DNA of 64,000 bases from Amoebophrya sp. A120 (taxonomy: Eukaryota; Protista; Dinoflagellata), in assembly GCA_905178155.1 (NCBI GenBank), contig CAJINV010000002.1:3176515-3240514 (forward strand). The letters are read 5' to 3'. A program made the position numbers and the translations under genes. Shown here piece by piece: positions 10,651 through 61,400 of the stretch; the stretch's first letter is position 1, and every line of letters begins with the position of its first letter. The notes under the pieces were generated by a model. The model made no database searches. It worked only from the letters and a program-made list of their open reading frames with translations, and was not told the DNA's origin.

Positions 10651-12305
10651 TGGTCTAGTGCAGTTTTATCTCGGGGAACGAAGTCAAGCTGTCCGGAAAA
10701 TTTTTTTAGCGCAATGAAACAGAATTCAGATTGCAGTCTAACAGCCACTAGCCCGCGCTTTCTTGATCTGCTCAACGGTGTTCAAGCAATTTTCTTCAGA
10801 GCCGGTGTTCTCAAACATGAAGGAGAGATCTTCATCTTGGTTCTTGTCTTGTGCGACACATCCTCGAGCGCACACACACAAGTTACAGCGACGAGTGCGC
10901 AACTGAGCGCAACTTGGCGCGACTTTGTTTACCCGGCCGGCGCAACTTGGCGCCCGCCGGCGCGCCTGCGTGCTCACTCTGGGCCGTGGTGTCTAAACGC
11001 GACACCCGGCAAGCAGGCGCCTGAGCCAGCGGGCGCTGAGCGCTCGGCCGTGGCATTAATCCCGCCATGGGCGCGCCGGGCGTTGAGCGCCCGGCGCGCC
11101 CATGGTGGGCCTCCTTGGTGTGGCGAGCAATTCGCGCGGGGCAGCAGGGGGTGGCGGAGTTCCCTGGCCGGGGCCGCGGGCATCAGCGTGAGGCGATCGA
11201 TCGAAGACGGCGGCCCCTGCCGTCCAAGAGCCAGCAAGAAGATGATGGTCGGAAGCTGAAAATGATGAAAAATCCCAAGCGGTCGGGGCCGGGTTTGCCG
11301 AGGAAGACGCGGGCGCGCGGCGGCCGGGGGGCGGGAGGCGAAGCGGCGGGCGATATTAATCGCCCGCGCCGCCCCTTTGAGGTTCGGCCGGGGCACGCGT
11401 CCACCGACCGGCCGGCCTGGCGTTGTGTTTTTCAAGTGTGCCCCGACTGGGGCCGGGGGCTGTTTGCCCCCCCCCGGCTTCGATTGGTTGCCGCGCCGAC
11501 GGACCCGGGGCGGGCGGGCTGGCAAGTGTCTCGTCGTTGTTTCTGCGGGTGTGTGATGAGCGGCGCTGCCCGGCGGGGCCACCGGCCCAGGCAAGGTAGG
11601 AAGCGAGCTCGAGGGCGTCGTCCCCGTCGTTCGCGCCGCCCTGCAGCCGCTGGGCGGACGCATTACAGCGAAGGCGAACCCGGGCAAAGGGTCAGCCGCC
11701 TTGTATATAATCACTCAGGCAGCCCGGGGCGCTAGCTCTGTTTTATCCCATCTGAACCAAATCGCAGACATTGGGTCAAAAGTGTGACAAGGCAAGTCGC
11801 CCCGTTGCATTGAAGCACCGTCTAAAACAGTGCGTCGACCGTCGGCAACGACGATGTTCTGTCTGCTAAGCAGACAGAACAAGTCGGCCTTTTTCGTTGC
11901 AGGTGCGTGGCAGAACCGTTTTCGTGATCAAACCCCCACGATAGATTCGGGTGGCCGCACTTTTCAATTGTGAGCACTGATTACTCCTGCAAGAACGAAC
12001 AGCACTCGGAAAGCGATCACACATGCAACTGTCGTGCCCAAAGCAATAAAATAATACGAAGCAAAAATAGCATCGATGATATATTAACGCACTTGCTTTC
12101 GTCTTCGCCGTGAAGTAGGAAACTGCAACACTGTAAGTAAGAGTGCAACAGGTGAAAGTGTGGAGGCTAAGTTGAGTAGTTGATGAAGTAGGACACGAGA
12201 GGACGAGCGTTCTTGTGCGCATTCAATATGCAGTTTGGGTTCTCCTGAGCGATGTATTGTAGTTGTACTAAAATGTGTATGTAGCAGCAACAGGAGCCCT
12301 CCAAA

Positions 12306-24400: not shown

Positions 24401-27302
24401 CACCATATAGAACTTTTATCACCACCTGATTTCTTTTGCTTTTTTGCATGAGATCTTCTGCTTCTGATTTTGTTTTTTTCATCTTCCTCTGCATTTTCAA
24501 AAAGAGTAAAATTTTGTTGATCACGGATCCGGGGTGTGGATAGTTTGGACTTCGACTCTTTGATCGATGTTTTTTAAAAAAACCCCGGTCCGTGATCTGT
24601 AGAAATCAGGGTGGTGTTTCTTCAATAAAGTACTGCTGTTAAGCTTCTAAAAACAGTAAATCTCAGTCCGTCACTGTAGCATCACAACGCTTCTCGCAAC
24701 ACTTCTATAAGTAAACCTTTTAGCATTAAAAACTTCTTCACATCAAAGCCTCCCTTTCTTACGTAAAACTTTTTTTGTAGAATTTCGTATAAAGGACTGA
24801 GAAAACTGCTATGCATTACAAATACTCTGTGGCGAAGCTTCTGTGTGAAATTTATACTACATATCTCGACCCTTCTTTCTTTACTTTGAGCTTCTGCCAC
24901 CGCTGTAATGCATTTATACGAGTGCGATGCTTTTGCAATGCATATGATTCCAGCTCTGGAGGGGCGGGTGCCGCGGGTAATATGAACAATATGATGAACA
25001 ACTATAACATCGACGCTAGTGGTGCCATATGAATTGCAAAACCACCGTACTAGTATAAATTGCATTACAAATTTTCTCAGCATGTTGAAAATTGGACTTT
25101 GTCATGCTGTTTTTCCTTGGAAAGGAAATTTGTCATGCATAACTGCAATTACTACGAGTGCGATACTTTTGCACAGCATATGCCAGCGACCGAGACCGGG
25201 AGCACAGTTCGCTGGAAGATTTTCTCGACATGATGGAAGTGCTGAAAAGGAATCTCAACCCCTTGCTCGTGCAATCCCAGAACAAAGTGAAATTTGCGAC
25301 AAATTTGCTGGAAACTCTCCTCCACTTGCTGGTCCGCTTTAGAATGAACGCCAACACGCCGCAAGCGCTCCAGATCCGGAATCTGATCGCGAAGCAGGGG
25401 CTGACCATTGTGCTGGCCTTGTTTAACACGAATCTTCGCGATTTCCTGCCGAAAACAGGGCCAGCGGAGCAGGCTGGGACGAGCACAGGTGCAACTTCTA
25501 AAACAGGCAGTGCCGCGTCGTCGAAGAGTAGTGCAGCGAATTCCACCACCAATGCAGGAGGTCTGAAGTCTAGTGCAACTTCAAGTTCTGCGGCAGAAAG
25601 ATATGCATTGCAAAAGTATCGTACTAGTATAAATTGCAATACAAACTTCCTTAGCATGAGAAATGGAATTTGTAATGCGGATTTGCCTTGATAAAAAGAT
25701 TTGTAATGCATGACTGCGATTACTACGAGTACGATGCTTTTGCAGTTCATAAAAGAGAACAAAACGCGATGTCCGTGGACACGGACGGGCCAAATCCCCT
25801 GGACATGTTTCACGGCGCGTATGAAAGCCTCAGAATGGAAATCCTCAAAGTGGAAATAATTTGTGATGCATGAAATGCGACGCAAAAAACCCTGTATTGC
25901 AGAGGACGCAATGGAGGCCGACTATTGTGCTTCTACGGGTTCAGAATTGGGCTGCTGATTAGCACGACAGAAGGGCACCCCTTTGCCTAAGTAGCATGAC
26001 AGACACGCTTTGAGTGCCGGGGAAATTTGTCATGCGCCGACTAGAAATGGTCCTTCAACTGGAGTCGTTTTTTTGCATTACAAAATATTTGCACTTTGAG
26101 GATTTCCAACCTGAGGCTTTCATAGCGCGACTAGTTCCCCCGACGGAGTGCACCACCACAGTTCCGGACTTGGTGCTCTCACGGGCGGCCAGAACAAATC
26201 CGGGAATGGGAGCCAGGCGCACCCGATGAAGGTGTGTCTCGATTTTCTGAACGAACTGCTGCTGAACTGTACTGGCAACACAGGTAGTTCTGTCATGCAG
26301 AACGCTAACGACAACTGGTTTCTCGACTACCTCAAACTTCCCGTCGTGGGAAGCAACCCAACCACAGGTTCCATTTCCGGTTATGCATTCTTGCAAAAGA
26401 ACTATCATACTGGTACTACTGTAAGAAATTGCATGACGAATTAACTTTCTCTGAAGGAAAAAATCGAATTTCTAATGCTGAACAAGGTAAGAAGACAGAT
26501 CTGTCATTTTGCTGTGCCGCAATTTGTTCAGATTCAGTACGAGTGCGATAGTACTTTTCCTCCAGAGGATACCGACCGCAGCGAGACAAATCTGCTACCA
26601 ACAAGTACCATTCCGCAAAACGAACAGGAGTTGGTTGCAAATCTGGAGCAGTTCGCGCTCCACAGCTTCCGCCTGGCCGCGCCGGTGGTAGGACCGGCAG
26701 GTGGTGGTGGTGGTGGAACCGCAACTGTTGTTGGTGGACAACATGTTCAAAACCAAAACTCTAGTATCGACGACCGCACTGTGTCCCAGTACATTCTGCA
26801 CCTCTCGACCAAAACCGCCATCGGGTCTTTGCTGCTTCGTGCGTTGTATCCTGTGCAAAAGTATCGTACTCGTATTGCAATCATGCATTGCAAATCCTTT
26901 TGTTAAGGTAAGTCCGCATTACAAATTTTATTTCTCATGCTGAGGAAATTTGTAATGCATTTATACGAGTACGATACTTTTACAGTTCATACGTTGTTTC
27001 AGCTGCTCAAACGAAACGCGCCCGTGAACCTTCTCGGGGAGATCATGCAAGTCACCCTTCTGCTCCGCGACAAGCTGGGTGCGGATATTTTTCACGCAAT
27101 GGGCGACCAAGCGCTCTCCGGACCGCAGACAAACAACGCGGACGTTGGTTCTGCAAATGCAACGTCTAGTATCGCGGAGAACTGCAAAAAAGCCCGGGAA
27201 ACGCAAGCGCAGTTTCTCCGGGACATGTGCGATGTGAGCCAGACGCAGCAATTTGCGAAAAACGCGATGAAGAAGTTTTTCGGTCGCGGAGGAAGGCACT
27301 GA
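15458..27302 (+). CDS. Large hypothetical protein (~2290 codons, probably alpha-helical scaffold), 20 exons
   Basis: One GT-AG intron (16130-16336) plus 18 introners. Removing each with one 5-bp DR leaves 6870 nt in one frame linking ORF fragments 15458, 16887, 17706, 19379, 20377, 21866, 23800, 25158, 26148, 26475 and 26937. Confidence 0.75.
16386..16649. mobile_element. Introner family C (TAT-N4-TGCAAAnATGTCTGGGTCTGGA TIR), 264 bp
   Basis: TIRs, DR CCGTA. Confidence 0.9.
16728..17033. mobile_element. Introner family D (TATGGATGTGTCAGG TIR), 306 bp
   Basis: TIRs, DR GAATC; inverted sister copy at 31972-32277. Confidence 0.9.
17463..17706. mobile_element. Introner family B, 244 bp
   Basis: TIRs, DR TGAAA/TGAAG. 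Confidence 0.9.
17864..18257. mobile_element. Singleton introner with long TIR, 394 bp
   Basis: TATGGCGGCGGTAGCTCATTTATTTG...CAAATAAATGAGCTACCGCCGCCATA, DR TCTTC, frame restored. Confidence 0.9.
18349..18669. mobile_element. Singleton introner, 321 bp
   Basis: Imperfect TIR (ACCCCTCCCC/GGGGAGGGG), DR AAAGC/GAAGC, frame restored. Confidence 0.8.
18818..18967. mobile_element. Introner family A, 150 bp (ends ATG)
   Basis: TIRs, DR CCCTG. Confidence 0.85.
19020..19220. mobile_element. Introner family F, 201 bp
   Basis: TATGCAAGAAAAAAACTGTG...CACAGTTTTCTTCCTGGATA, DR AATGA/AACGA. Confidence 0.8.
19282..19431. mobile_element. Introner family A, 150 bp
   Basis: TIRs, DR CGACC. Confidence 0.9.
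19992..20142. mobile_element. Introner family A, 151 bp
   Basis: TIRs, DR GCTAT. Confidence 0.9.
20242..20394. mobile_element. Introner family A, 153 bp
   Basis: TIRs, DR GTGAT/GTGAC. Confidence 0.9.
21681..21889. mobile_element. Introner family F, 209 bp
   Basis: TIR with ACTGTTTCACTGT/ACAGTGAAACAGT, DR AGCAG. Confidence 0.85.
23593..23883. mobile_element. Introner family E (TATCCTGnGnAAAAACG TIR), 291 bp
   Basis: TIRs, DR AATTT/AATGT. Confidence 0.85.
24044..24944. mobile_element. Introner family A expanded to 901 bp by an AT-rich insert (~24164-24903)
   Basis: Two halves of a family A element with TGTAAT duplicated around the insert. DR TAATT/TGATT; frame restored. Confidence 0.8.
25028..25180. 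mobile_element. Introner family A, 153 bp
   Basis: TIRs, DR TGCCA. Confidence 0.9.
25602..25751. mobile_element. Introner family A, 150 bp
   Basis: TIRs, DR AAAGA. Confidence 0.9.
25820..26124. mobile_element. Singleton introner, 305 bp
   Basis: TATGAAAGCCTCAG..GGAAATCCTCAAAGTG TIR, DR GCGCG. Confidence 0.9.
26382..26571. mobile_element. Degenerate introner family A, 190 bp
   Basis: Diverged TIRs, DR CCGGT/CCGAC, frame restored. Confidence 0.75.
26847..26991. mobile_element. Introner family A, 145 bp
   Basis: TIRs, DR CGTTG. Confidence 0.9.
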
Positions 27303-35100: not shown

Positions 35101-38100
35101 ATGGCTGAAAGTATTCTGTCCGCGGGCGCGGCTCCGCGTGACGAAAGCCCATTCGCCAAAGCGGCACTTTCTTCGACTTCCGCGATAATTTCGACCGCAG
35201 GAGCAACAAGTCAACAACCCGCTGGTACAACCTCCACAACAATGAGTAAAACATCAAACACGACGACTTCTCATCTGACCGTCACGACCACCGACATCAG
35301 CAATCTGCGAGTTTTTCGATTCCGTGATGTCGGGGGCAACATCTTCTCCGTTTTCACGAACTCTGAGAGTTGCAAAACCGTCTACGACTGCATCTACAAA
35401 GTGTTCGGCATCCCAGCGGACGTGGCGAAGCATTTGGTATCCTGTGCAAAACTATCGTACTCGTACTGCAGTCATGCATTGCAAATCTTCTTTTTGAGGT
35501 AAATCTGCACTACAAATTTTATTTCTCATGCTGAGGAAATCGAAATTTGTAATGCATTAATACGAGGACGATACTTTAACTTTTGCAGTTCATATTTGGA
35601 GATGGTTCTCGACGACCGAGAGGAAGATGAAGCCGGAGCAAGCGGACTGCTTGGTCCGAAAATCTTCAAGACTAAACCCTCAACATCTTCATCTCCGACA
35701 GAGTCCGATGGGGACACTTCTAAAGATTATGACGATGAGGAAATAACTGCTGCCTCACCTGCTGCTGGTGCTGCACAAGTAGATGACCAAAAAGAACATA
35801 AACAAACCTACGAGGATCTCTGCTTCCGTGTGCATCGGAAGATGTTGAGTCCCCTCGAGCTCGTTCTCTTCGCGGAGCCGAATCTGAGCGGCATTCAGCT
35901 GGACGCAGACCAGGTGACGGTGCTAGCCCGCGACTTCGCGAAAATTGCGAAGGTCCGGGAGTTCGCGGTCACGACGAAGCACAAGAAGAGCAAAGAGAAC
36001 CACCTCGACGACAAGGCAGCAGCGCTGATTGGGGAATCGATCCGGAAAAGATACGGCGTGAAGGTCAAGGACCTGCTGCGCAGTGTTGAAATGAAGCGGA
36101 CGAGGGAAAACGAAAGAAATGGCCATGATCCTTCTGACCAAGACGACGAAAAATCTGATTTCGACAGCGACGTCGATAAAGACAGCTCGGACGAAGATGA
36201 AAAGGAAACGAGCAATTACGTCAGTACAGACGAGTCGGAAAACGAAGATTTTCTTTCTGCTCCTATTCTTGACAGGAGCACCGGCAAGACATCATCAAAC
36301 TTCCATCTCCTCGACTACGCGCCGCAAATCATTTTCCCGAACTTTACGGACCTCGTCAACGCCAACCAGCCACTGCACCCGAAGAAACTTTTGTCTGCAC
36401 TCTGGCGGCTCCGGTTTCTCCTGGCTTGTGCGGCCGGGACGCTGAACTTGGAAAAAAATAAGAGATCCTGTCCAAGTGCGAATAACAAGCGGTTCCAACT
36501 GGACGCGTGGTCCCTGCGGAGTTTGCTGCGCCGCGTGGAGCACGCGCTGTTGCAAGAAGCGCCGAAGCGGATCGCATTAGATCAGGCGCAAAAAACCGGG
36601 GAGGTGCCGCCGCCAAACCTCGGAAGAAGTAGTGCTGGCACCAGGAGCTCTAGTTCGAATACTAAGGATGAGTCCTCGTCCGGCGGGACTAGTACTTCTA
36701 GCAGTACTGAAGAAACGAACCACGACGAAGACGACTCGTCCCCCTTCTGGTCGCAGTTAAAACTGCACCAGCAGCGGGAACTTCTCCGGCTCGCGAACTT
36801 CGTCTTGCTACCCATATCAAATGCAAAAATGTCTGGGTCTGGGAGATTGCGAGATTTGTTATGCATGTCTAGCATCACTCGAGAATCTGTGATGCATGAG
36901 TACGACGAAAAGGCGCTCCTATCTGTCATGCAAGAACGCAGTTTCTCATGCGAAATACGCAACACATAGCACCTCAAAAATTTGTCGTGCTTGGCTGCAT
37001 ATTGCAGTCCGGCTATTATCCACTTTTAGCATTACAAGTTTCCAGACCCAGACACTTTTGCATTTGATAACCCAAATCCGGTCACAACACGGCTCTTTTC
37101 CGCACGGATGAGACCCCGTTTGAGCCGCTGTTAGAAGTGCAAGAAGAAGGAGGTGCTCCTGGGTCAACAACTACGAATGGTACGGGGCCGCAACATCAGC
37201 TCCGCCGCTTGCTCCACCGGTGGGACGAGGAAACCGACCGACCTATCCTGTGTAAAAACGTCCCCACGACCCCAGAGCTCTTGCAATGCAAATCTGCATG
37301 CCAAACAAGTTTCTCATGCGGAGCCCCATGAGAAGCATCTTCTAGTCGTGTTTTGGAATTTGTGATGCTAGAATCAGCATGGCTTGCTAGATCTATGTTG
37401 CTGCTGAACTAGCTAAACAGGATCACACTATGAGGGCAAACTTGTCATGCGAAACAACCAAAGCTGGCGGAGTTGTCTAGCAGATTTCCCTTCTTGACTA
37501 TGGGGTCGCGGGGACGTTTTTCCACAGGATACGGCCGCGGAGTAACCACGCGAACCCGCTGGATGTCGCGAAGTTTCTCGACAAGGCAAACGAGTTATGA
37601 ACTGCAAAAGTATCGTACTCGTATAAATGCATTACAAATTTCCTCAGCATGAGAGATGAAATCTGTAATGCGGATTGACCTGCAGAAAAGGATTTGTAAT
37701 GCATGATTGCAGTACGAGTGCGATACTTTTGCACAGGATACGAGTTGGGCTTGGAGTTTTGCCGGGCGTGGTTGTTTATGAAATGCAAAAGCATCGTACT
37801 AGTAGAAATCGCATGACAAATTCCTTCAGCATGAAAAATGGAATTTGTCATGCTGTTTTACCTTGGGATGGAGATTACTATCTAAACTGCAGCAGCTGGT
37901 CAAAAATGCAGGCGAGGGGTATGTTCGGGGGTGTGTCAGGGGTATGCAAATGGCAGTCAATCACGACCTGAATACAAATTTTTGGCGAAAAAGCAGAAGG
38001 TGGGGTATAAACATACCCCAGACACACCCCAGACACACCCCAGACATACCCCAGACAGACCCCCGAACACACCCCAGGCAAAAAGTCCGAACATACCCCA

Positions 38101-41100
38101 GACACACCCCGGACACACCCCGGGCAGACTTTCGGACACACCCCGGGCAGACTTTCGGACACACCCCGGCCAAACTTTCGGACACACCCCGGCCAAACTT
38201 TCGGACTTTGTCATGTGGGGTTTGGACCCGAAGCCCAGTCTGTCGCGCGAGACCGTGCGGCCAAGGGGCGATCCAAAGCCCTAGGTCAGCGCGGGGACTA
38301 TGTCCCCGCGCCATGACCTAGGTGCCAGCTGTGACCATTTCCGTAACCGGACGCCGTGTGGCTAAGGGGCGAACGCCCTAGGCCAGCGCGGGGACTCGGT
38401 CCCCGCGCCATGGCCTAGGGGCCAGCTGTGCGCGCTTCCATCCCGGACACCGTGCGGCCAAGGGGTGAGAGCCCTAGGCCAGCGCGGGGACTCGGTCCCC
38501 GCGCCATGGCCTAGGGGCCTGCTGTGAGCGCTTCCATCCCGGACACCGTGCGGCCAAGGGGCGAAAGCCCTAGGCCAGCGCGGGGACTCGGTCCCCGGCG
38601 CCATGGTCTAGGGGCCAGCTCTGGGCGCTTCCCGGACACCGTGCGGCCAAGGGGCGAAAGCCCTAGGCCAGCGCGGGGACTCGGTCCCCGCGTCATGGCC
38701 TAGGGGCCAGCTTTGAGCGCCTCCCGGACACCGTGCGGCCAAGAGGCTGGCGAAAGCCCTAGGCCAGCGCGGGGACTCGGCCCCCGCGCCATGGCCTAGG
38801 GGCCAGCTGTAAGCGCTCCCACCCGTCCCAGACACCGTGCGGCCAAGGGGCGAAAGCCCTAGGCCAGCGCGGGGACCCGGTCCCCGGCGCCATGGCCTAG
38901 GGGCCAGCTTTGGGCGCTTCCCGGACACCGTGCGGCCAAGAAGCGAAAGCCCTAGGCCAGCGCGGGGACTCGGCCCCCGCGTCATTGCCTAGGGGCCAGC
39001 TTTGCGCGCGCGGACACCGTGCGGCCAAGGGGCGAAAGCCCTAGGACAGCGCGGGGACTCGGCCCCCGCGTCATGGCCTAGGGGCCAGCTGTGAGCGCTT
39101 CCACCCCGGACACCGGGCGGCCAAGGGGCGAAAGCCCTAGGCCAGCGCGGGGACTCGGTCCCCGCGCCATGGCCTAGGGGCCAGCTGTGAGCGCTCCCAC
39201 CCCGGACACCGTGTGGCAAAGGGGCGAAAGCCCTAGGCCAGCGTGGGGACTCGGCCCCCGGCGTCATGGCCTAGGGGCCAGCTTTAGTGAGGCGCCTCCC
39301 GGAAAGCGTGCGGCCAAGGGGCGAAAGCCCTAGGTCAGCGCGGGGGCTCGGTCCCCGCGTCATGGCATAGGGGCCAGCTGTGAGCGCTTCCCGGACACCG
39401 TGCGGCCAAGGGGCGAAAGCCCTAGGCCAGCGCGGGGACTCGGCCCCCGCGCCATGGCCTAGGGGCCAGCTGGGGCGGAGCGCTTCCCGGGCACCGTGTG
39501 GCCAAGGCAGGGGCGAGAGCCCTAGGCCAGCGTGGGGGCTCGGACGGTCCCCGCGTCATGGCCTAGGGGCCAGCTGTATGCGCTTCGCGGACACCGTGCG
39601 GCCAAGGGCGCGGGGACTCACTCGGCCCCCGCGCCATGGCCTAGGGGCCAGCGAGCAGCGAGCGCCCCCCGGACACGGCGCGGCCGAGCAAGGGGCGAAA
39701 GCCCTAGGCCAGCGTGGGGACTCGGTCCCCGCGTCATGGCCTAGGAGCCAGCTGTGAGCGCCCCCCGGACACCGTGTGGCCAAGGGGCGAAAACCCTAGG
39801 CCAACGCTGGGACTCGGTCCCCGCGCCATGGCCTAGGGGCTAGCTATGAACACCCCCCGGGAACCACACCGCGCAGCCAAGGAAGGGGCAAAGAAAAGCC
39901 CTAAGGCGGTGCGGGGGCTCTGTCGCCGCGCCATGACCTGGGGGCCGGCTCCAGACCCGGCGCCAGTTTCTTCTTTCTTTTTATCGTTGCGCGCGGATGG
40001 CTAATGAATCTAGTGCGCGTAAGCAAGGGAGCCGCGTCCGCAGGCCCGTCGCGGGTCATTGAATGCAAGGCGCACCGAGATACCTAGCTGCGAGCGACCT
40101 GCCTGCCCAGTGCCACCGCGCAGACAAACGTCGGAAGGTCGCAGCACGGGGACTCTGTCCCCGTGCTCGGACCTTGTTTGTAATGCATAAGTGCAATTAC
40201 TACGAGTGCGATACTTTTGCACTGGATATTGTTTGCGAATGCGGTTCTGGTGGTGAACAATCCGAAAGACGTTTTCCACTGGTTCACCGCCCGAACGATC
40301 GCGGAGCACCACTTGTTTAATCTCGCGGTCGCCTGTTTGGAGCTCGTTTGGTACTCCCCCATGATTTATCAAGTGTAAAAATGTCTGGGTCTGGAAGAAT
40401 GCAACTTGTCATGCTAAATCTGAAGCTTGCAAAAATCTGTGTTGCATGATTGCCAAAAGTCGTCCAGTTTTGACCAAGTCGGGAGGGAGTTTCTCATGCA
40501 GGATAGGCATGAAAGAGATCGCACAGAATCTGTCATGCTAGGTCCTGCATTCCAGACCTCATGGGTCATCGAAAAGCTGCATGACAAATCGCGCACTCTT
40601 CCAGACCCAGACACTTTTGCATTTGATATGATTCGGGAGATGCTACAGCGGCAAACCTGGTCGTGGTGCGAACATTTACCGGAGTTTTACCTGTATCCCG
40701 TGCAAAAGTATCGTACTCGTAGTAATTGCAGTTATGCATCACAAATCTTTTTGTTTTTCTTAAGGCAAACCCGCATTGCAAATTTAATTATAATTTGTAA
40801 TGCTGAGCAAATTTACATACTAGTACGATACTTTTGCAGTTCATAACCTGCAGATGCTGCGAAACGTCGGAAGTAAGAAAGCGGTCGCGGTAGGGGCGGA
40901 GATGAACAAGAACCGGGACGGTAGCGATTTCTTGAACGCAAATGCTACAACGAGTATTGTCAACAGGAAGGACGACAACGACAAGGACAGCATCATTGTG
41001 AAAACCGCTCCCACTGCCAGCGACTTCGACTTTGTTTACTTGCGGACAGCTGCTGCTGTGTCGAGAGGACCTTCTTCGCCGGTGAAAACGACCGCCCGCA

Positions 41101-49400: not shown

Positions 49401-52400
49401 TGGCAGCCTCATTTCATTCGTGTTTTCCCTATATAGTCTGCGCATCACAGGTTTTCGTTTCAATGTCGAGCAACTTTGTGATGCAGAAACTCCAATAAGT
49501 GTTTAACTGTAACACTTTTTTCCTGTGATATACGGATCAGAACGAAGACTATCAGCAGTTGAATACCGATCTCCTTTTCGACGAAGGGGCCGCTGGGAGT
49601 GGTAATTCTAATTTTTATCCGGAAGCAGCACCATCTACTTCCCGCACGGAGGACACAAAGAAACGAAATCAGAGGGAACATGTCAATCTGTCAGAAGGTC
49701 GTGGGAACAAGTATGGCGTTCTCAAACGTTACATTCTCAACTGTTACATGATTTGTCATGCAAAATGACCATGACCCGCCAGACGATGAAGCTGCTGCGC
49801 ATGACAAATTCTCGGAGGGCTAAACACCACTATAATCCGCACGAAACCTGTAATGCAAGACGCGCAAGGTTCTCCCTCTCATCTGTGCTAGTCTTGCATT
49901 ACAAATTTATGTAACAGTTGAGAATGTAACAGTTGAGAACGCCATAACAAGAACCCGGGGGCCAGACCAGCAGGGACAAGAAAAAGTCGTATATAACCTG
50001 CTCAGGTGTTACAATCTCAAACGTTACAATAGAATCTGAAATTTGTCTTGCATGACTAACATGACAGACTCGGACAGCGTTCCACTTTTTGCAATACAAA
50101 TTTCGCCAGATTGTAGTGCGGATTGGGACTCCAGAACTTGTCATGCGCAATCCTGTGGGAGTAGGGTAGATCATGCACGTCTTGCAACACAAATTCCAGA
50201 TTCTATTGTAACGTTTGAGATTGTAACACCTGAGCGGGTTATATCGTAGCAGTAGAAGTTCCAGGCCGTGGTACCTCCCCAGTACGCACTTGCATATCCT
50301 GTGCAAAAGTATCGTACTCGGATTGCAATCATGCATGCACCCAGATGAATTGTCGTATAAGATGAATTGTAACAAAATACGTATCTGCTATCCAGCGAAG
50401 CTTGCAGCGTATCGTATTACGCAGCAGAGAAAAGCGAAAGCGAACACCAGCCGAGCCAAATTCGACAAAAGCAAAAAAGCAACCCTTGCAACATATTTTC
50501 CCAAAAATGAATTGCAAAAAGCATCACCCCGCTGTTGTAAAAATCGATGCAATTCAGCGTGAAAAGACAAAGCAGCTCAGCTTGCCGCTTCTGTGATATA
50601 GCTGCGCTGCGAAATAGAATAAGACGAGCAAGCGGAAAAAAAATGCAGCAAAATAGCGACAGGAAAGCGAGCGCGATCTACTTCTATTGCCTCAGCTGCA
50701 GCTTCTGTGACAAAATTGACGCACTGAGAAACGCGATCAAAAAAACAATCGCTCTTTAGATTGTGAAAATGTAGGGAATGAGAACGAGAAAGCCAAAGCT
50801 AACATAGGGAAAACAAAAATACACAGAACGAGTCCCACATTAGCAAATAAAGCCTACAAAACTTAACTTGCACAAACACAAAACGCAGGGACGTATCAAA
50901 TTAGCAACGCGAGTTTTGTATGAGAACAAAACGAGCGAAGGAGAACTTGCAGGCGAAGTGCAGCGTCGGGGCAAGTTGGTGAAAGCGTTAGCCGTCAATC
51001 AACATGCGGGGTGCGCTGTACTTCGTACGGAAATGGAAACAGTTTGCAGAAACAGAAGACAGCAGAATAGTGTAAAAATTGCATGTAAAATTCAAGAAGA
51101 AGCGCATAGTGTACAAGTGGAGTGCAGCAACAGAGCGCGTTGGTCGAAGCGACAGCCTCAAATCAACTCGCGTCGTGCGCTGCGCTCCTAGTTTTAATAG
51201 TTATAGCTGATAACAGTTCAAGTCCGACACAAGAAGAGATACGAGAAAAGACGAGAAGAACGACTGATAAAAGTAGCACAACGCATGTTGTTTTTCACGA
51301 GAAATTACACATGCGAAAAAAAACAAAACGAGTAAAAGGAACGCAGCGCATCTTCTAGCGCAAGAAATAACAGGCCAAGAAGCTAAGCAAAAACGGAAAA
51401 CCGACGCCGCGGCGCTTTTCGCGTGCCCCCTCTTCAGGGCTCGGGATTCTTGAACGCAGACAGAGACCGGCGCCCCTCCGAGGCGGAGGACGTCGAGGCC
51501 ATGCGGTGCAGTTCCTGAAGCTCCGGCGGGGCGCGCGGCTCGATCGAAGTCGTGCGCCACGTTGCCGGCATGCGCAGAAACTGGCCGCCTTGAAAATTTC
51601 GCGTGAGCGCCAAAGGAATGAAAACGACGCAAGGGCACCGCTGAGCACGCCACCACGCCATTGGTGCAGCCTCATAAATTCGCCAAACGATGCTGACACC
51701 AGTAACGCCCTCAATGCGGATCCGAATTCCGCGCGTCGCCCCCTCGACACGGGTGACCGAACCCCGGATGTTCGTGGGAACTTGTTTCGGGCCGGCAGTT
51801 TCCAGCTCGGCGACGTCGACGTAGGCTTTCGTTTGCCCTTATGCACTGCAAAATCGCACTGGCGCAACGTAATTACGCAAGCAGCCAAATAAAAACAAAG
51901 AAAAATTAGAGACCAGCATGCTTCTGGGCGCATAAAGAGAAAAAAAGACACTGAGAAAAATGCGCAACCACATGCGCGCCAGCACGAGTGTTGCAGAGCT
52001 TAAGAGCGGAAGCGACCCCGAGCCAAAAACGCGATCCATTGCGGGGTCGACGGCGACGACCGCGGAAAGATCGTCGCCCGCAGCTGGAGGCGGTGGCCCA
52101 GCAATCGACGCCGTTTCTTGTTGGACTCGTGGCGGGACGTGATTCGGCGCGGCAGGCGGCGCGGTCTCGGTGGGAGGCGCAGGCGGCGCGACGACTTGCG
52201 TGAGGCCCGTGGGGCACCGCTTGAGGTCCTTCCAAGGAACATCGCGCAGAGTCGTTTCGCGTTTCTTGCCGGAGAGGACTCCGTCGCTGCGGACATCCAC
52301 CCCGAGCGCCTTCACCTGCGTAACGACGAAAGGCCCCAAGAATTTTGTTGCCAAGCCGGGGCTTTTCTGTCTGTTTCTGCACAAAACACGTTCCCCAATT

Positions 52401-55400
52401 TTCAGTTTTTTAATGTCCTTCAGCCTGCCCCCGTCCTCCCGATTTTCAAAGAAGCGGCTGCGATTGTGTAGCGCCTGTCTGGCCAGAGAGCCGCGCAACG
52501 TTGCGGCCGCAAAATCAGCAGCGCCATCACTCTCGCCACCCGCGGCCCCGGCGCCGTGTTTCCTTTCCTCGGAATTCTGCGGCGGGGGTCCAGCCAGTGG
52601 GGTGGCGGAGGCTGCGCTTGCGCTTTCTGCCGCGGCGCCCTTGTCTGCAACGATATGCGGAGGCGCACGCTGCACGGGATGCAGAGTGGCTTCGGTGATG
52701 TCCCGTAAGGGGCGGAGAAACGTGTTCAAATGCCTCGCAGCGGGAATCCGACGGCCCCGCGTCGCCCGTCGGTTCAGTGCCGCAACAGACGCAGGCAAAT
52801 GACGAGGCCAATCCTTTTCGCCCCCCCCTTTTACGCAGTTGCTGCTTCAACTGTCCATTGTAGGTTTGGTCGGAGCCGCCCCCGGCGTTTTGCTTGCTAA
52901 ATCGCGGCTATTTTTTTTCCCGAACAATGTGGAGAAGATTGCCGGCGCGGTGGTGAGGTGCCATCCCCTGGGCTCGGCGCGAAATCGCAAAGGCTTGGCG
53001 CCTGTCCGCCACGCCCTTGGCGCGCGGGCGCCGCGAGCCCATGCCGGGTCTGTGGCTTTGCGCGCTCCAGAGGGCCGCGCCCTCCCTGCGGCATGGCCCG
53101 TCCCTTGTGCCTTGCGCATTGGCAGGGCCGCCGGCCGGAGGCAGCGCGCCACCCCCTTTGTCCAGCCTATAGATTTGCTATTTTGCTTGCTATTTCCCCT
53201 GCTAAATCGCAAACGCGCAAAACCTGAGGCAAAACGCTGGGCCCGAGATTGTTGCCGACTTTGGCAGGAAATTTAGCCCGCGCCTTCGGCAAGGGATTTA
53301 GCAAGGAAAATAGCAAGGAAATTAGCAGGCGAATTAGCAAGCAAATTAGCACGCGAAATAGCAAGCAAAATAGCAAGCAAAATAGCACGCGAAATAGCAA
53401 GCGAAATAGCAAGCGAATTAGCAAGGGAGAACAAGTTCGCCCCGCGCTTAATCGGGGCCAAAAAAGGGGGGGCCCATTTGGCGAATTTTTGGGGGGTTTT
53501 TTGGGTGGGCAAATTCGAACACGGGAAAAAAAATAGCCGTCACTTAGCACGGCCCCCGCCGGGGCCGGCTCCGCCCAAGTAGGTTATCACCGAAAAATCC
53601 GCCCTCCCCATATTGCAAAAGGAATTTGCGTTGCTGATGCGTGGCCGCGAGTTGTAGTCCGTTGCAGAACACGCGCGAACACGAACCCAGCAACACGAAT
53701 GGTCTTCATAAATATGGGGGAGCGGCTTTTTCAGTTTCGTAGAACTTTCCGCGGCACCATTGGACTGCGGATGCGCGCGAGGGCTTTCGCGGATATCCGT
53801 GCGAAAGGCTGCGCCCGCCGGGGGGTCGTTGGTGAAGGTCGCGCACTTATGGTCGCGCGTCAAGCAGGTGCACTGGCTCCAGTTCTTTATCTGCTGCAGC
53901 TCTGTGCCCTTGTCAATGTTCAAATGATCCGGCGCGCCGTGTTCCTCGATCATATCCAGATGCGCTTGCTTGACTTGGTCGGAGCCGCCCCCGGCGTTTT
54001 GCTTGCTAAATCGCGGCTATTTTTTTTCCCGAACAATGTGGAGAAGATTGCCGGCGCGGTGGTGAGGTGCCATCCCCTGGGCTCGGCGCGAAATCGCAAA
54101 GGCTTGGCGCCTGTCCGCCACGCCCTTGGCGCGCGGGCGCCGCGAGCCCATGCCGGGTCTGTGGCTTTGCGCGCTCCAGAGGGCCGCGCCCTCCCTGCGG
54201 CATGGCCCGTCCCTTGTGCCTTGCGCATTGGCAGGGCCGCCGGCCGGAGGCAGCGCGCCACCCCCTTTGTCCAGCCTATAGATTTGCTATTTTGCTTGCT
54301 ATTTCCCCTGCTAAATCGCAAACGCGCAAAACCTGAGGCAAAACGCTGGGCCCGAGATTGTTGCCGACTTTGGCAGGAAATTTAGCCCGCGCCTTCGGCA
54401 AGGGATTTAGCAAGGAAAATAGCAAGGAAATTAGCAGGCGAATTAGCAAGCAAATTAGCACGCGAAATAGCAAGCAAAATAGCAAGCAAAATAGCACGCG
54501 AAATAGCAAGCGAAATAGCAAGCGAATTAGCAAGGGAGAACAAGTTCGCCCCGCGCTTAATCGGGGCCAAAAAAGGGGGGGCCCATTTGGCGAATTTTTG
54601 GGGGGTTTTTTGGGTGGGCAAATTCGAACACGGGAAAAAAAATAGCCGTCACTTAGCACGGCCCCCGCCGGGGCCGGCTCCGCCCAACTTGACCTCTTCC
54701 GCCTCGAAGCTCGTCAGCAGTTTGGAACAAACGGCGCCAGTCGTGAGGCAGCACATGTTCAAACAACCGACGAAGCGCGTGCCGACATTTTTGCCGCGGT
54801 GCGCCGAGTTTTCGCAGGGGGTGCAAACTATGCAGTCGACGCCTGCCCAGGCAAAAGGCCGAAGGGACTCATTGGCGGGGTCCTTGAGCGCCGCCAAAGT
54901 ACTGCTTGCGTAAGAATCCTGCTGCTGCGGCGCATGTTCTTCGTTGGCCGCGCAAGCCTCGCACGCTTGCACCGCAACCCGCGCGCTTTCTTTCAAGCCG
55001 CACCACGTGAAGCCAAGCTGCTGGATGGCCACCCCAGTTGCCTCAATTCCCCCATGCGACCGCAAATGCCCAAGGGCCGCAATGCGCTGCTTTTCCGCGT
55101 CGTCGTCGGCGCCGATGACGGTAAGCCAATCCGGATACACCATCAGCGCTTCGGTGGTTTTGCGTCCGTAACCCTGGAACTCTGCGCGGACCTGCAGCTT
55201 GCCCATGCCCGGGGCCAAGCGGAAAAAGTTTTTCTTTGTTTTCCACCACTTCCGCTGCCGCGCGGTAAGTCCCAACGCTTTGGAAGCCGCCCCAATGTCA
55301 GCAGCCCGCAGCAAGAATTCAATCGCGCCATCGGGCAAAGAAAAATTTTTGCCGGCGTTGGACTTTCGCCCGCGCTTTCGTGGGGGGGGCGCGCACTCGC

Positions 55401-58400
55401 TCGCATCCGAAGCAGCCTCCCCATCGCTTTCGCTCAAGTCGCTCAAGCTAACAACGCTCGAAACCGACGGCGCCGGCGCATCTGCTTCCGCTGCACGTTT
55501 GCGAGAGGCCAAGCCAACCGCCACAGGTTCGCCCTCTTGCGTTTCCAAAACCGTTTCGGCCTTCGTTTCGGGGGGCGGGGCAAAGGAAGTCCCCGTCGCT
55601 TCCGCTTTCGGCTGAGCGCCGCGCCTGACAAAGGCGTTGTAGTGGCGGCCATCGTACTCGAGTCGGATCGCCTTCGCGCCGCTTCCGATTTTCTGCGGCT
55701 GCTCTTGAGAACCGGGGGCGGGTTCGATCTGAATCGACAACACTATGCAAAAGAAAAAGCAAACCAGCCCACTACACATCAGAGACAAGAAAGGCACGGG
55801 CCGCAAATTTTCGCAAAACGCGCGCCGCATCCCGCGCAAAAACGACAGCGCGCGGCGTGCCGCTCGGCTCTTTTAGGTGCGGGCGGGCTCATTTTTTCGG
55901 GTAGGGTCCATGACTTTCGCCACAGCCTCCAAAAATGCGTGGCCCAGCCATACCGTTGCCGCGGGGTGCAGAAGTTTTCCCAACCAGGCCAGCCACTTGC
56001 TCTGCTCTGCTAAAACCGCGGGGCCCGCCGGCTCGTCCACTCCGTACTCCCCCACCCAAAACGGACCAAGCTCTTCGCGCTTGTCCGCCATGAAACCCTC
56101 CACCAACTGCTTCACCTTCGGCATGCTGATGCCTGTGGCCGCCGCAATCGAAAGAGGGCAACAATTGCCGTTCCCCTCGATCTTTTGCAAAACATCGGTC
56201 GAAGCCGCACCACAATCGCTGAAAAAACGGAGCCCCCCCCGATATCGTTTCGGGCTTCTGTCATGCTGATCTCCTGAATTTCCCGGGATTTTCGTGGAAA
56301 ATCCTGGGAAACCAGCGAAAGCGCAACCAAGTCCGCGCATTAGCTGAAACAACAACGGGGGGGGCGCCTGTGTTCACGGCCTTAAGCTTCCCCCGGAGCG
56401 GCCGCAGCAGGGGCCTCCGCCGGTTTCTCGCCGCGGATCCACTCGACCCGGCACAGCCACTTGCCCCGTCCCGGCTTGGGGTTGCGGCTGCCGGGGAGCC
56501 TCCCGACTTGGCTCGGCTTGTTGGCGTGCCTGTCCCCCCCTAAAAGGGGGACCATCACCGTGCGGAAATCTTTTTCCGCTGTCGCGCCGCCGGGGACCTG
56601 AGACCACGCCTGCCAGCAGGCCGCCGAAGTGCGGGTCACCAACTGGCAGCGGTGGTCTTCCTTCGCCCTTTCCACCACCCCCGGCGCAGCGTTGTCCAGG
56701 TCGACCAAAAAATATCAAACACGCAAAGCCCCCGCAAAACAGCGCCGCGCTACGGGCGCGCGCGCGAGGTATTGCCCGACGGCTGGGCAGGAAATTGAGC
56801 GACCGCCCAATCCCCCCGGCTCTTCTGTCATGGTGCTTGGCCGCGGCCAATCAAGCAAGCGGCGCCCCTTTCCCCTTGTACGGGCGGCAAGCTAGAAGGA
56901 AAACGCGAACCCGCAACGCCCCCCATGCTACTAAAAGCGCGCGCACGAGGCGGGGGGCGGCGCTGCCCTATCTAGCCAAGGAACGGCCCCGGCGCTGCGC
57001 CACACTGGGCGCGCGCCTTGCAACTCGGGTCGCCTCGCTCGGCCGCCGGCCGGCCAAAGAAATTTTCTCACCAACCGGCGAAAACCTGCGCCGCGACCTT
57101 GGCCGGGGCCTAGGGTTTAGAATCTCCACCGGGCGCCCGCGGCTTTGCAGAAAAACGCCGCAACTCCATTGCGCGCAATGCTTGCGCGCCGTTGCGAAGG
57201 CTTTGCGCGTGCACATGCGTAAAATCCAGTCGGAGCCCATCGGGCGAAAGAAATAATGAAAATCCTTCCCGAGCGCGTTGGGCCGCCACGCCTTCGGGTC
57301 CGCTCGCTGCTCCATGCTGGCGACGCCTGAAAAACAGGAAAGATGAGTGTTGCTATTTGACATGTGAAAAAGGAAACCTCACTACGCGGAAAACGACTGA
57401 AGCGCCCTGCTTCCCCTCCCTTACTATAAGAAAGCGGAAGCGAAAATCTATCGCAACACCCAAGCGAAAAAGAATACCTCCCCCACCACGCAGCGGGTCC
57501 TTGGCCTGTGTCAGGATCAACTTCCGGAGGGCCCCGACCGGCAACAACTTCGTGACCCGTGACCTATCCCCGAAAAAAATGCTGTCCACACAAAGCTGGC
57601 GGCCTCACTGCATACAAGAGCGAAAACGCGAACCGGCAAAACAAAAAAAAAATCCGTTGCCCATCGGCGGGGCAAATGCAAAAAGCCACCACGAGGCCCC
57701 GCCGCCTTCCATGCGCCTGGGGAGTCCATTTTTTTGGGGGATAGGTCATGTCTGCGACAAGGAAGTGCCGCCGCATCCAGATCGTTCGTCACCAACCCTT
57801 CCCCCGTGTACCGGTAACCCGGAAACGCCGACGGCATCGGGGGGGGCGGGGGGGGCAGGTTGTGCAGGCCCGGGCCACCGGCCGTGCGGCCCGCGGGCGG
57901 ATCGATGTTGCGCCCGGACGCTTTGCCGCTCGCCTTCGAATTGTCCCCGCAATCGGAGTCGCTCGCCACAGAAGCCGGGCCCGCGTCGAGCTGCCCGTTG
58001 GTGGGGGCCTGGGTTCCGTCCGGAGCCGGGGCAGCGGGGGCCGGGTCCTGCAGCCAAGAAACGCCCAAGACACTGCCCGGGCCACTGTGCGGAAATGCCG
58101 CCATTAGGCCGGCATCCCGCGTCTTTGTGGCGACATTCGCGGCAAAATCTTTCTGCTCGGGGCTGATGGGCTGCGCCCCTTCCATCGCCATCGCCAACAT
58201 CCCGCCAAGCATGCTGCGCCATAATGGGAAAAAGTGCGCCCAATCAAATCACGGGCGGGGGCCCTTGTATCATAAAAAACAGCCCAAAGCGCCAGGCGCT
58301 GCCTGGCCTGGGCGCCGCAAAAGGCGGAGCCCTTAGCGGGCGGAAACCCTGCAAAGCCTGGGATTTGTCATGCCTAAAAAGCTGCCCGCGCCCTGCAATT

Positions 58401-61400
58401 GCAGGGGCTTGGTTTTTTTTCGTATTTTTTCCTTGGCGCTGAGGCCCTTCCCGAGCGTCTCCAAGCGCTTGAAATTCGCCCACAGCTTCGCCACCTTCAT
58501 ACGAGTGAGCCGCAGGCGGTCGCGCTGCTTGTCCGAGTAAGCGCCCGGGTCACTCATGTCGACCCACCCCGCGGGAGTCAGGCGAGGGGGAAAATTGCCC
58601 GAGTCCCCGAAGCAGAAGTCGGAATCCTGCAAGTCCAGCAAGCCAGCGACCGCCAAGGCCTTGGCCCGGTCGTAATCGCCGGCCACCGAAACGATTTCCA
58701 TGGCCATGGTGTTTGTTGTTTTCTTTCGATTTGCAAGGCGAAACCGAAAAAATGCGAGAAGAAGAAAAACGCGAAGCAACGACAAAGATAAAGAAGCCAG
58801 AAGCGTCGCAAGCTAGTGCGTAGCTGGTGTTTTTTTGCTTAGTAGTCGAGAGGTTTTTTTTTGTGGTTAGTGTGCTCGTTTTTCGTCCGAGGTAGACAAG
58901 TTGTTTTTTTTTGGGTAGCGTGTTCTTTTTTTCGTCTGAACAAGACAAACTGAAGTTGGGCACTGTAAGGGTAATGAAGATGAAACAAGAAAAAAGTAAT
59001 ATAAGCATGAGCCAACACAAAGTCATCATATGCCTATCACGTGACTGCTCACATGATAATCATATGATTTTGCACCCCCATAAGTAAGCCATTTTGAGTT
59101 GTTTCGCTCACATGATAGTCATGTGATTATCATGTGAGGCCCGACGCTCGACAGCGAAAGTATTTTTCCAATTATATGACGCAACGCCCGTCATACGTAC
59201 GAAAGGAAGCGTAAAAACGTGAACGAAACACAACGAAAACAACGAAAGAACGAAAACCGATCGTATACACAATACGACGACAACTCAGATTGCATCCCGT
59301 AAGGCCATGAAAAAAAGTGAAAAAGACAACTCAGCACGAAGCAATTCAGATTACTGCATGCATTACAAGTCTTCTTTTTAAGGTAAATGCGCATTACAAA
59401 TGTTATTCCTCATGCTAAGGAAATTTGTAATGCATTTATACGAGTGCGATTATACTTTTGCAGTTCATATTGCAGTGGCTCGCAGACAAAGCAGAAGACA
59501 TCTTCGCACAGGAACATGAAATCGCTGATAGAACTTCTGCAATACAAATTGCAAATGGAAATGCTTCTGGACCTCCACGACGGGGTGCCCCACCTGAGCA
59601 GGAATTTCTCTCCTACTACGAAAACCACTGGCATAACTCCTCCTCCTCCTCTTACAACTATCCGGAGAGCGTTCTGTTGGAAAGAATATCAACTGCAAAA
59701 ATGTCTGGGTCTGGAAGAGGCGGAGCTTGTCATGCACATTTTGCATGACCCGTGAGGTCTGTTATGCTGGTGCTAGCGTCACTGATTTTTTCAGAGCTTC
59801 TTGATGCTAATTACGCATGAGAAATGCCATCATCTCCGCGTGCCGCGAACTGACTCCTCTTGCTGCAGCTCATGCAACACAGATATTTTCAGAATCCGCA
59901 GACAGCATTACAAGTTCCACTCTTCCAGACCCGGACATATTTGCAATCCATAAAGAAAACCCTACGTTTTGTTCGCGCCGAGGTGTGGGTTCTGCAAAAA
60001 ATTCATGTGCAACCCAGAGATCATTGATGCGGTGAACGTGAACGTGAATCAAGAGCAACAGCAAGGACAAGGTTGCTCCGCCGTAGAAGACGAAGATGAA
60101 GAAGTACTATTCCCTTTCGTGGCGAAAAGCGACGAGTTTTTAGCGGATATAATGCCCAGGATCAGCGAACACGAAGGACTAGGCGAGAGGGAAGATGAAC
60201 AGAAGGAGCAGGAGGAGTCCTCAAGCGCAACCAACCTTGCACCGGAACCTCCAACAGTTGACGTACAACCACAACAACCTGCAGCACCTGCACCGCCCAC
60301 CCCTCGTGCCTGCAGCAAAACGTGTATTGAGACCAACGGTAAATGTCAGGACTTGGAGTGTATCAAATGCAAAAATGTCTGGGTCTGGAAGAGTTGTGTT
60401 TGTAGACTTGTCATGCAGATTGTCCATGACCCATGAGGTCTGGAATGCGAGCCTTAGCATGACAGACTCTGCGACGAGGTCTCTGCCATGCCTATCCTGC
60501 ATGAGAAACTCCCTTCCTTTTTTGTTCCTCCAGCGTGGAGCGGCAGCACCATCGTGGTTTTTTTTTCTCCCCGCGACGCGATCACTGGATCCCGGTAGCG
60601 CTAGATCCCTTTCCGCAGGCGCTCCTAAAGTGGGCCTTTTTACCGGTGCCGGCGCACTAAAAAAGAACCCCGAGACGGGGAAAAACAGAACCACGAAGGA
60701 GAAGACGGAGGTGGGGCACAGAAGAAAAGCGGAGTGGGGCACTAGGGAAAAAGAAGAGAAGAAAAGACGAGCGGGGGGGGAAGGGGCTAAAGAGCAAAAA
60801 AAGAGCTGCAACTGTCTGGGAGTTTGCATGTCGAAGTCGTTCGGACTAGGTTTATTACCAAAGTGGCGCCAGGGTTGTTATTTTAAAGATTGCGCTAAGG
60901 CAGCACCCCCCTTCCCCAAGGGGCCCCCCGGGGCGGGCGCGGTGGCGGCTCTGCTAACGCGGAGCTCCAAAGTCCGACTCTACCTATGCGCATAAAAAGG
61001 GTGCGCGGAAGCAGGTCGGTAAGGTGCTTGAAAGGGGCATGCTTTGGGGTTGCCCGCCATCGTGATAGGGTCAACGTGTGTGACCAATAGGCCCCCAGTA
61101 TATCATAGCGCGCAACCGACCACAAAAGCAGAAGAGTTTAAAGTTTGTAAGAATAACCCAGCAAGGCAACACTGGAGCTCCACCTTGCTCGCGGGCTTGG
61201 ATGGTAAATCAGGTCAGCCACATCTAACGCCCACTGGCCGTATACACGCGTAAGAAATCGGAAACGGTTCAGCGGATGCGGTCGGGTGGTACCTGTAGGA
61301 CGTGGAACGGGTGTCCACCTAGGGGTATTGGCAGAGGCTAAATCTGTTCTAACGCCACGGTATTGGCAGAGGCTAAATCTGTTCTAACGCCACCCTGACA

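Follow-up and report, generated by a model that had tools for sequence, protein, structure and literature searches.

We analysed a stretch of 64,000 nucleotides from the genome of the dinoflagellate Amoebophrya sp. A120 (contig CAJINV010000002.1, positions 3,176,515 to 3,240,514; hereafter the window), in which a mobile element occupies positions 50336..59358. The element spans 9023 bp, or 7585 bp without two miniature inverted-repeat transposable elements (MITEs) and one target-site duplication (TSD) each, and its GC content is 0.57 in comparison to 0.51 in the remaining window. Its proposed exons, introns and domains all lie on the minus strand. We consider it very likely that this is a DNA transposon which ends in TG..CA, has a 4-bp TSD and encodes, on one spliced strand, a Gypsy-type integrase together with a RepB'-type primase domain and an OTU-like domain.

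The boundaries could be read from the host sequence that the element interrupts. The flanks 50295-50336 and 59357-59469 are the two halves of a member of a ~150-bp repeat family with 20 near-full copies in the window, and the element splits this introner-like repeat (50295..59469; TAT..ATA ends, 5-bp TSD TTGCA). At the matching spot, seven of seven intact repeat copies examined have a single ATGCAT, and the element is flanked by TGCA on both sides (50332..50335 and 59359..59362), which indicates a 4-bp TSD of TGCA, as deduced from this one insertion. The junctions read CATGCA/TGCACCC on the left and TACTGCA/TGCATT on the right, with TGCA..TGCA as the termini of the element. The terminal inverted repeat (TIR) is imperfect: 12 of the 17 terminal bases match and the similarity fades beyond ~30 nt, the 30-nt alignment of the ends being equalled in 1 of 2000 shuffles and the 20-nt alignment in 12 of 2000. 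Eight of the 17 TGA(A/G)TTG sites of the window lie no more than 270 nt from the element ends, three per end facing inwards. Three of them accompany the 17-bp TIR in the 5' end (59287..59358, minus strand). The 3' end (50336..50562, plus strand) has, besides its imperfect TIR, TGAATTG at 50346, 50363 and 50508 and a reversed one at 50556. We found no long terminal repeat (LTR), with a best local score of 22 across the first and last 900 nt, and no reverse transcriptase (RT) motif Y/FxDD in the six frames of the element. An earlier note, made from this sequence without database searches, had described the TGCA termini, the imperfect TIR, the subterminal repeats, the 4-bp TSD and the lack of LTRs and RT, and all of these descriptions hold. 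The 5' non-coding region also contains two strong DNA hairpins (59025..59138), which we regard as a candidate priming or origin site. For the minus strand z is -4.4, a value that none of 200 shuffles reached, and for the plus strand it is -3.1, reached by one of 200; no comparable signal was present at the element termini. Other versions of the element differ from the window in this region.

To the primase, the Pfam family RepB_primase matched over the 110-residue frame 56385-56714 (E 2.2e-4, 21.6 bits). Among 1.84 billion proteins, phmmer gave 20 matches, seven of them RepB_primase proteins and 13 chance-matching repeat proteins, which were excluded from further analysis of the primase. A profile of the window peptide and 10 relatives had the RepB' protein of plasmid RSF1010 as its sole PDB match (E 2e-27). 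With the AlphaFold2 model (pLDDT 76.5), the top Foldseek matches were 3h20, 6zp9 and 3h25 (probability 1.0, E 3e-3 to 8e-3; the next row had E 0.48), and VIA placed the same three at ranks 1-3 (Z 7.4, 7.0 and 6.2; rmsd 2.7-2.9 over 92-93 residues). These structures are RSF1010 RepB' and the archaeo-eukaryotic primase (AEP) domain of the S-2L PrimPol. The VIA scores, being below Z 8, are middling, yet both structure methods and the sequence searches agree on a RepB'-type primase. In the published account of RepB', D77, D78, D134 and R145 are required (PMC8567376); their equivalents D5, D7, D61 and R72 are present in the window primase and are invariant or nearly so in an 11-row alignment. The conserved motifs were located at 56694-56705 (DxD), 56604-56630 (TS..WQAW), 56532-56540 (GGD) and 56490-56504 (GRLPG). 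RSF1010 RepB' (3h20/3h25) shares with the window primase the fold, the Asp/Asp/Asp/Arg positions and, as described, hairpin DNA nearby (PMC8567376). The two proteins are only ~25% identical, however, and the window primase is eukaryotic, split by an intron, located in a transposon and has no helix bundle that we could find.

The F-x-R-P motif, which precedes DxD in this family, was found 514 nt upstream of the catalytic piece, beyond predicted intron D (56707..57220, 514 nt), whose bounding inverted repeat was matched in 0 of 1000 and in 3 of 2000 shuffles. This motif (FFRP, 57241-57252) lies in exon 4 (57221..57326). With exon 4 added, the profile scored 81.9 instead of 75.2 bits, a gain of 6.7 that was reached in 3 of 1000 shuffles, and hhalign placed the exon at the expected primase column (P 0.02). 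Thus, part of the block 58785-56968, which the earlier note had left as one of unknown nature, appears to belong to the primase: its segment 57363-56968 is partly primase exon and partly intron, while exon 1 remained without a match. As judged from sequence and the predicted model, the region 56382-56706 together with exon 4 is the catalytic domain of a RepB'-type AEP primase with intact catalytic positions, and the previously proposed primase-like block (56720-56382) did retrieve RepB_primase in Pfam and RepB' in the PDB profile search and with Foldseek and VIA. Since the intron that interrupts the primase is of the type found in the rest of the element, and since the primase is in frame with the upstream exons and has a matching GC content at third codon positions (GC3 0.83, similar to other exons), we do not regard it as a nested insert, and no inner TIR/TSD pair was found around it.

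About seven introns are predicted in total, three of which (B, D and G) are bounded by significant inverted repeats. Exon 1 (58373..58707) has its ATG at 58707, 111 codons and a GC3 of 0.79; it had no family match in profile searches, the libraries used on the element pieces including Pfam, NCBIfam, PHROGs and PDB. It is followed by predicted intron A (58214..58372), of 159 nt, with a 5-bp direct repeat at its ends, kept frame and a non-significant inverted repeat (102 of 1000 shuffles), and by exon 2 (57759..58213), a Pro/Ala-rich linker with GC3 0.79. Predicted intron B (57557..57758) has an inverted repeat of 21/22 (0 of 1000 shuffles). The frame fails to join across it in the window copy and joins with the 4-nt shorter form found in DNA reads, both read versions being 4 nt shorter at 57759-57763. 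The short exon 3 (57478..57556) is in frame with exon 4 across the GT-AG intron C (57327..57477, 151 nt). In frame joining was seen for introns A, C, D and F. The primase catalytic domain (56382..56706) ends in TAA at 56382, and the link between primase and OTU (56219..56381) may consist of one or more introns or be intergenic. A 44-nt GC-AG intron (56387-56344) would fuse the primase and OTU frames; the ~160 nt that follow it are without the codon bias of the other exons. We also noticed that several predicted minus-strand introns have the hexamer CATGAC at their start or close to it (58372, 57750, 56832, 56265 and 59123), possibly a splice signal or an introner end signal.

The OTU-like domain was recognized at the level of motifs. 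GNGNC (56161-56175) and WLGH (55939-55950) in its N-terminal half (55910..56218) and HYN (55636-55644) in its C-terminal half stand in the OTU order and in one frame, across predicted intron F (55745..55909), which is 165 nt long and has an in-frame stop. In a test with 200 shuffles, the Cys box arose three times and the His box 11 times, the latter also having three occurrences elsewhere in the window. Pfam and PDB gave no match for the OTU, and in the ESM Atlas OTU appeared at rank 6 (0.87) and on 11% of members, which serves as a lead only. The earlier note had placed the OTU and the integrase in separate blocks. However, one open frame (54688..55744) carries the C-terminal half of the OTU, an acidic/basic linker, the H2C2 finger (55068-54952) and the first catalytic Asp (GVD, 54843-54835). 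Because the His box shares this frame with the finger and the first Asp, the OTU appears to be fused N-terminally to the integrase.

The H2C2-DDE-GPY/F integrase proposed earlier was confirmed by a Pfam match to zf-H2C2 (25.4 bits, cut-off 25), by the ESM Atlas, which called the core rve (first match 0.92; 10 of the 10 best named matches in that family or clan), and by the GPF motif; searches of Pfam, NCBIfam, PHROGs and PDB with the integrase pieces gave no rve match. The integrase core (53746..53968) holds the second Asp (NIDKG, 53906-53920) and the Glu (PQSNGAAE, 53747-53770). It has the form D..D(54)E, with a Cys/His-rich insert (C-x-C..H-x-C) at 53906-53770, in comparison to the usual D-E spacing of 35. 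The PQSNG-E motif was found in none of 200 shuffles and the GPF motif in one of 200. Predicted intron G (53585..53745; inverted repeat in 0 of 1000 shuffles) follows the catalytic Glu. In the C-terminal part (51434..52865), assigned at the level of motifs, the frame slips by one base behind the post-Glu helix, at a run of eight G (52821-52828), after which come a WPRHLP stretch, the GPY/F region (52405-52328) with the GPF motif at 52328-52342, and a Pro-rich tail, with a possible last exon at 51838-51434.

The integrase is interrupted by two MITEs, copy 1 at 52866..53578 and copy 2 at 53975..54687, which are 100% identical, 713 bp long and ~390 bp apart. Each has a TIR of ~57 bp (TTGG..CCAA) and an internal 12-bp tandem array, and the two copies have different 6-bp TSDs; removal of both preserves the integrase frame. 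With two MITEs and two frame slips, the window copy is broken as assembled. Copy 2 is missing in other versions of the element, as indicated by a read joint 53968>54688. The MITE had a read depth of 91, with shorter deletion forms at depths of 182 and 42, which suggests that these two are the only full copies.

Other copies of the element were sought in DNA reads. Two runs of one sample contain 82% of the words of 54700-59400, and run X1 was compared over 53585-59480. In the 29 bins that lie within the element its depth was 91-229 and did not fall from one module to the next, that is, between primase, OTU and integrase. Variant contigs were mostly 33-70 deep, with three forms at 58978-59106 and a form without MITE copy 2 at a depth of 57-60, and we read depth and variants as two to four element copies. 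Among the 12 of 20 indels listed, 11 were in the element: eight in introns or 5' non-coding sequence, three at the edge of exon 2 and intron B, and none within primase, OTU or integrase. Substitutions were listed for 40 of 177 and classed for 31; among these, the integrase exon had seven synonymous and three non-synonymous differences. A 355-nt primase contig had one difference from the window, namely QAWF in place of QAWS, and F stands at this position in five of 10 primase relatives. The versions in the reads hardly differ over the primase, but they do differ in introns B-D.

The depth across the modules indicates that primase, OTU and integrase travel together. The co-occurrence of primase and integrase in other copies, which the earlier note had named as a check, is thereby supported in part, through depth and contig pieces rather than whole copies. 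A chance nesting of separate primase and integrase elements, or a chimera of the assembly, could be proposed from the TAA that ends the primase frame at 56382 and from the fact that no single contig spans both genes. We consider this very improbable: the joint depth, the form without MITE copy 2 and the lack of any listed indel in the three domains disfavour chance nesting, and the modules have no inner TIR/TSD pair, no depth drop between them and a common intron style and codon bias.

We compared the element with known systems. As described in PMC2836005, Ginger1 shares with it the H2C2-DDE-GPY/F integrase, an OTU domain in the same protein, introns, TG..CA ends, a 4-bp TSD and the lack of RT and LTRs. 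However, according to the same description (PMC2836005), the OTU or Ulp1 domain of Ginger1 is C-terminal to the integrase, whereas the OTU of the window element is N-terminal, upstream of H2C2; the TSD of Ginger1 is CCGG or CCGT/ACGG instead of TGCA; its ends are TGTNR with a TIR of 40-270 bp instead of TGCAG/TGCAC with a TIR of ~17 bp; and its length is 2.6-7 kb, in contrast to 7.6 kb without MITEs for the window element, which in addition has the primase domain and D(54)E. The YPYY motif that precedes the zinc finger in Ginger1 was not seen, there being no Y/F-P-Y/F-Y/F in the translation on inspection by eye. Ginger2/TDD elements are without GPY/F, target RTATAY and end in TGTNR, whereas the window element has GPF, the target ATGCAT and TGCA ends (PMC2836005). 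IS3EU and GingerRoot are also integrase-like elements with TIRs, but in their descriptions they have TA..TA ends (rarely TG..CA), 6-bp TSDs and no HHCC, as opposed to a 4-bp TSD and H2C2 (PMC10045372, PMC6839031). From a Gypsy LTR retrotransposon the element differs in having no LTR, no Y/FxDD and introns inside the integrase.

The combination of an rve integrase, a replication enzyme and an OTU in one mobile element is shared with Polintons, Polinton-like viruses (PLVs) and transpovirons, as these are described in PMC11161782, PMC12220804 and PMC12721341. Polintons and PLVs, in those descriptions, have a 5-6-bp TSD, a long TIR and an OTU fused to the polymerase, while the window element has a 4-bp TSD, a short TIR and an OTU fused to the integrase. 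The scanned open reading frames (ORFs) of the element gave no family match to a protein-primed polymerase (pPolB), an AEP-helicase fusion or a polymerase-helicase replicase, and no profile match to a capsid or packaging ATPase. By its sequence features, the element seems to be Ginger1-like at the level of the integrase, yet it falls outside Ginger1, Ginger2, IS3EU/GingerRoot and Polinton/PLV. A literature search at the level of titles and abstracts, Repbase lying outside its scope, found no Ginger-like element with a primase, and the available text of PMC11071296 and PMC12669031 does not describe this pairing. The element is real and apparently new to the literature: it is Ginger-like, has captured a RepB'-type primase domain and is known to us from a single genome.

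The relatives of the primase are stand-alone proteins of 240-320 residues. The best pairwise matches were P0002 and L017 (36-37% over ~95 residues); L018 reached 32%. The loci L018:2615-5175 and L017:33-1385 contain RepB'-type primase genes with Pfam E-values of 1e-7 and 3e-8. In L017 the primase stands directly before an ORF that we take, from its motifs, to be capsid-like, and in L018 it stands tail-to-tail with an ORF presumed, also from motifs, to be a rolling-circle Rep with HUH-Rep and superfamily 3 (SF3) helicase motifs. The neighbouring ORFs had no matching family in Pfam, PHROGs or PDB and in NCBIfam only a weak match to a P4-primase C-terminal domain (E 0.098). These loci are possibly circular Rep-encoding single-stranded DNA (CRESS)-like viruses that encode their own primase, of which our literature search found no description. 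A second group (P0011, P0007 and P0030-P0032; clade support 99/97) includes a protein of Karenia brevis from EukProt, and the primase of P0030 carries added Cys-rich, zinc-finger-like repeats. In a tree of 27 rows, the window primase was placed outside the phage and dinoflagellate clades at a position that was not resolved, so we name no donor. The proposal of the earlier note that the lineage stands between Gingers and Polintons is unsupported: the closest primases lie beside genes like those of rolling-circle viruses and not on Polinton-like contigs.

Since these relatives stand beside Rep-like and capsid-like genes, and PLVs are described as combining AEP replicases, rve and OTU domains (PMC12220804, PMC11161782), the element might be an integrated small virus or satellite, that is, a reduced PLV- or single-stranded-DNA (ssDNA)-virus-like replicon with an rve integrase, for which exons 1-2 or a helper would give the particle functions. 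We hold this to be improbable, as profile searches detected no capsid, ATPase, helicase or HUH Rep, the TIR of 17 bp and the TSD of 4 bp contrast with the several hundred bp and 5-6 bp reported for PLVs (PMC12220804), and the introns are many and of host type.

How the primase could serve such an element may be outlined on the model of the IS3-type copy-out. The integrase would bind the TGA(A/G)TTG repeats, nick one strand at the CA ends and join or free it; the primase, which belongs to a family acting on ssDNA, would then start the synthesis of the second strand, for which the two hairpins of the 5' region (59025-59138) are the most plausible site; a host polymerase would extend this strand; and the integrase would insert the duplex with a 4-bp stagger. 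The OTU, lying between primase and integrase, may cut the polyprotein, as was proposed for the OTU of Polinton pPolB (PMC11161782). The position of the closest primases beside rolling-circle Rep-like (L018) and capsid-like (L017) genes gives this scheme an ssDNA context. That the captured primase primes a copy-out step of a Ginger-like transposon is a tentative reading, to which we give somewhat less than an even chance. Slightly more doubtful is the fuller version, in which the element represents a new self-priming eukaryotic lineage that acquired its RepB'-type primase from small ssDNA viruses of the rolling-circle kind and has a primase-OTU-integrase polyprotein, ssDNA copy-out and its own second-strand priming at internal hairpins.

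Several observations weigh against this interpretation. The Pfam score of the primase lies below the cut-off (21.6 against 24.3 bits) and the Foldseek E-values exceed 1e-3. The helix-bundle domain was not detected, the best score over 894 tiles being 1.9 bits, where five of seven leave-one-out controls scored 7-16 bits and the other two -1.5 and 2.3; according to the published account, RepB' forms no primer without this domain (PMC8567376). Neither a processive polymerase nor a helicase was detected in the element. The primase frame stops at 56382 and may be separate from that of the OTU. Promoter repeats or the insertion of a small palindrome may also account for the hairpins. The depth of run X1 lacks a host single-copy reference, X1 may be the source sample of the window, none of its contigs spans both primase and integrase, and across all proposed exons there were 10 synonymous versus seven non-synonymous differences among the substitutions listed (40 of 177). 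No integrase was found fused or adjacent to any relative of the primase, and contig scans for a second lineage with primase and integrase gave only phage- or virus-like loci or nothing. Searches for longer proteins gave 0 of 1674 candidates for the primase, 0 of 1469 for the N-terminal part of the integrase and 1 of 2109 for P0007, the last being a protein that has a primase and a zinc finger but no integrase. Scans of contigs for the window primase and a plasmid tblastn search gave no match, and 16 viral loci resembled phage primase regions, with no rve integrase in their long ORFs as read by eye. A scan for a bacterial counterpart, a transposon paired with a primase, also gave no match, and in the published description of the bacterial Tn6049 the word primase does not occur in the main text (PMC2864759). 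Priming by this domain is plausible yet not proven, the main obstacle being the helix bundle, which is either absent or was not recognised. The word self-synthesizing, used in the earlier note, goes beyond these results, in which a processive polymerase, a helicase, a capsid and a helix bundle were all not found.

The missing helix bundle could also mean that a cut-and-paste Ginger-like element carries the catalytic half of a primase, captured from a small ssDNA virus or plasmid, as a passenger without a role in movement. GingerRoot elements are described as carrying acquired gene fragments (PMC6839031), the pairing was seen in one genome only, and the relatives of the primase are stand-alone proteins. 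However, the primase has kept its catalytic residues, its codon bias equals that of the integrase, it has gained an intron and it is nearly invariant among read versions in contrast to introns B-D, and we find a passenger role rather unlikely. Alternatively, an AEP domain without helix bundle could be a polymerase that depends on a primer and serves to fill the 4-nt gaps at the insertion site or to repair the ends and the donor site, with no priming. An intact catalytic domain without its accessory domain, a fold near the isolated S-2L PrimPol AEP domain and the LigD polymerase, and the possible fusion to the integrase via the 44-nt GC-AG intron would fit this role. On the other hand, a C-terminal helical domain is present in the closest relatives, which are of the RepB' type, and the isolated catalytic domain of RepB' is reported to be inactive in primer and replication assays (PMC8567376), which leaves end repair an unlikely explanation.

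The surrounding window is gene-dense, and repeats of 150-300 bp, which have inverted ends and belong to several families, break up its ORFs. Four introner-like families, with 20, 4, 5 and 3 near-full copies and exemplified by 26847-26991, 49710-49947, 40367-40628 and 16728-17026, all have TAT..ATA ends, and the copies inspected by eye have 5-bp TSDs. These families resemble non-autonomous TA..TA integrase-type elements, and they fit the description of the introners of Amoebophrya (PMC7789003, PMC12130899); this architecture by itself would point to a syndinian dinoflagellate as the probable host. Introner family 38 of strain A120, a Ginger-like element of this introner-rich dinoflagellate, was considered as the identity of our element and rejected, as it is given as ~810 bp long with TA..TA ends and a 5-bp TSD (PMC12130899), a type that fits the host repeats of the window and not the element. 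The idea that the integrase of the element moves the host introners was dropped as well, because the introners end in TAT..ATA with 5-bp TSDs. Elsewhere in the window, a GC-rich tandem array (38011-39860; 96-bp unit, ~17 copies) is preceded by an 11/23-bp array, and an EamA-like transporter gene (12285-14387, plus strand; Pfam E 2e-12) was the sole family match among 14 host ORFs scanned. A search of Rfam gave no match.

The substrate of a retroviral-type integrase is a linear duplex that already exists, and to our knowledge it has not been tested how Ginger and Polinton transposons make such a duplex from a chromosomal copy. A primase of the element's own, acting on ssDNA, makes the idea of a single-strand copy-out testable, with one small enzyme, one candidate hairpin site and one catalytic motif. 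If true, self-priming would show how Ginger-type integrases, which cut only one strand per end, can leave the donor site. It would also add eukaryotic transposons to the range of the RepB'-type primases, which were characterised on a plasmid of bacteria and have relatives in a dinoflagellate (Karenia) and next to genes like those of ssDNA viruses. Finally, the element is a coding integrase element in a type of genome whose introner-moving enzymes are described as unknown (PMC7789003), although its ends differ from those of the local introners.

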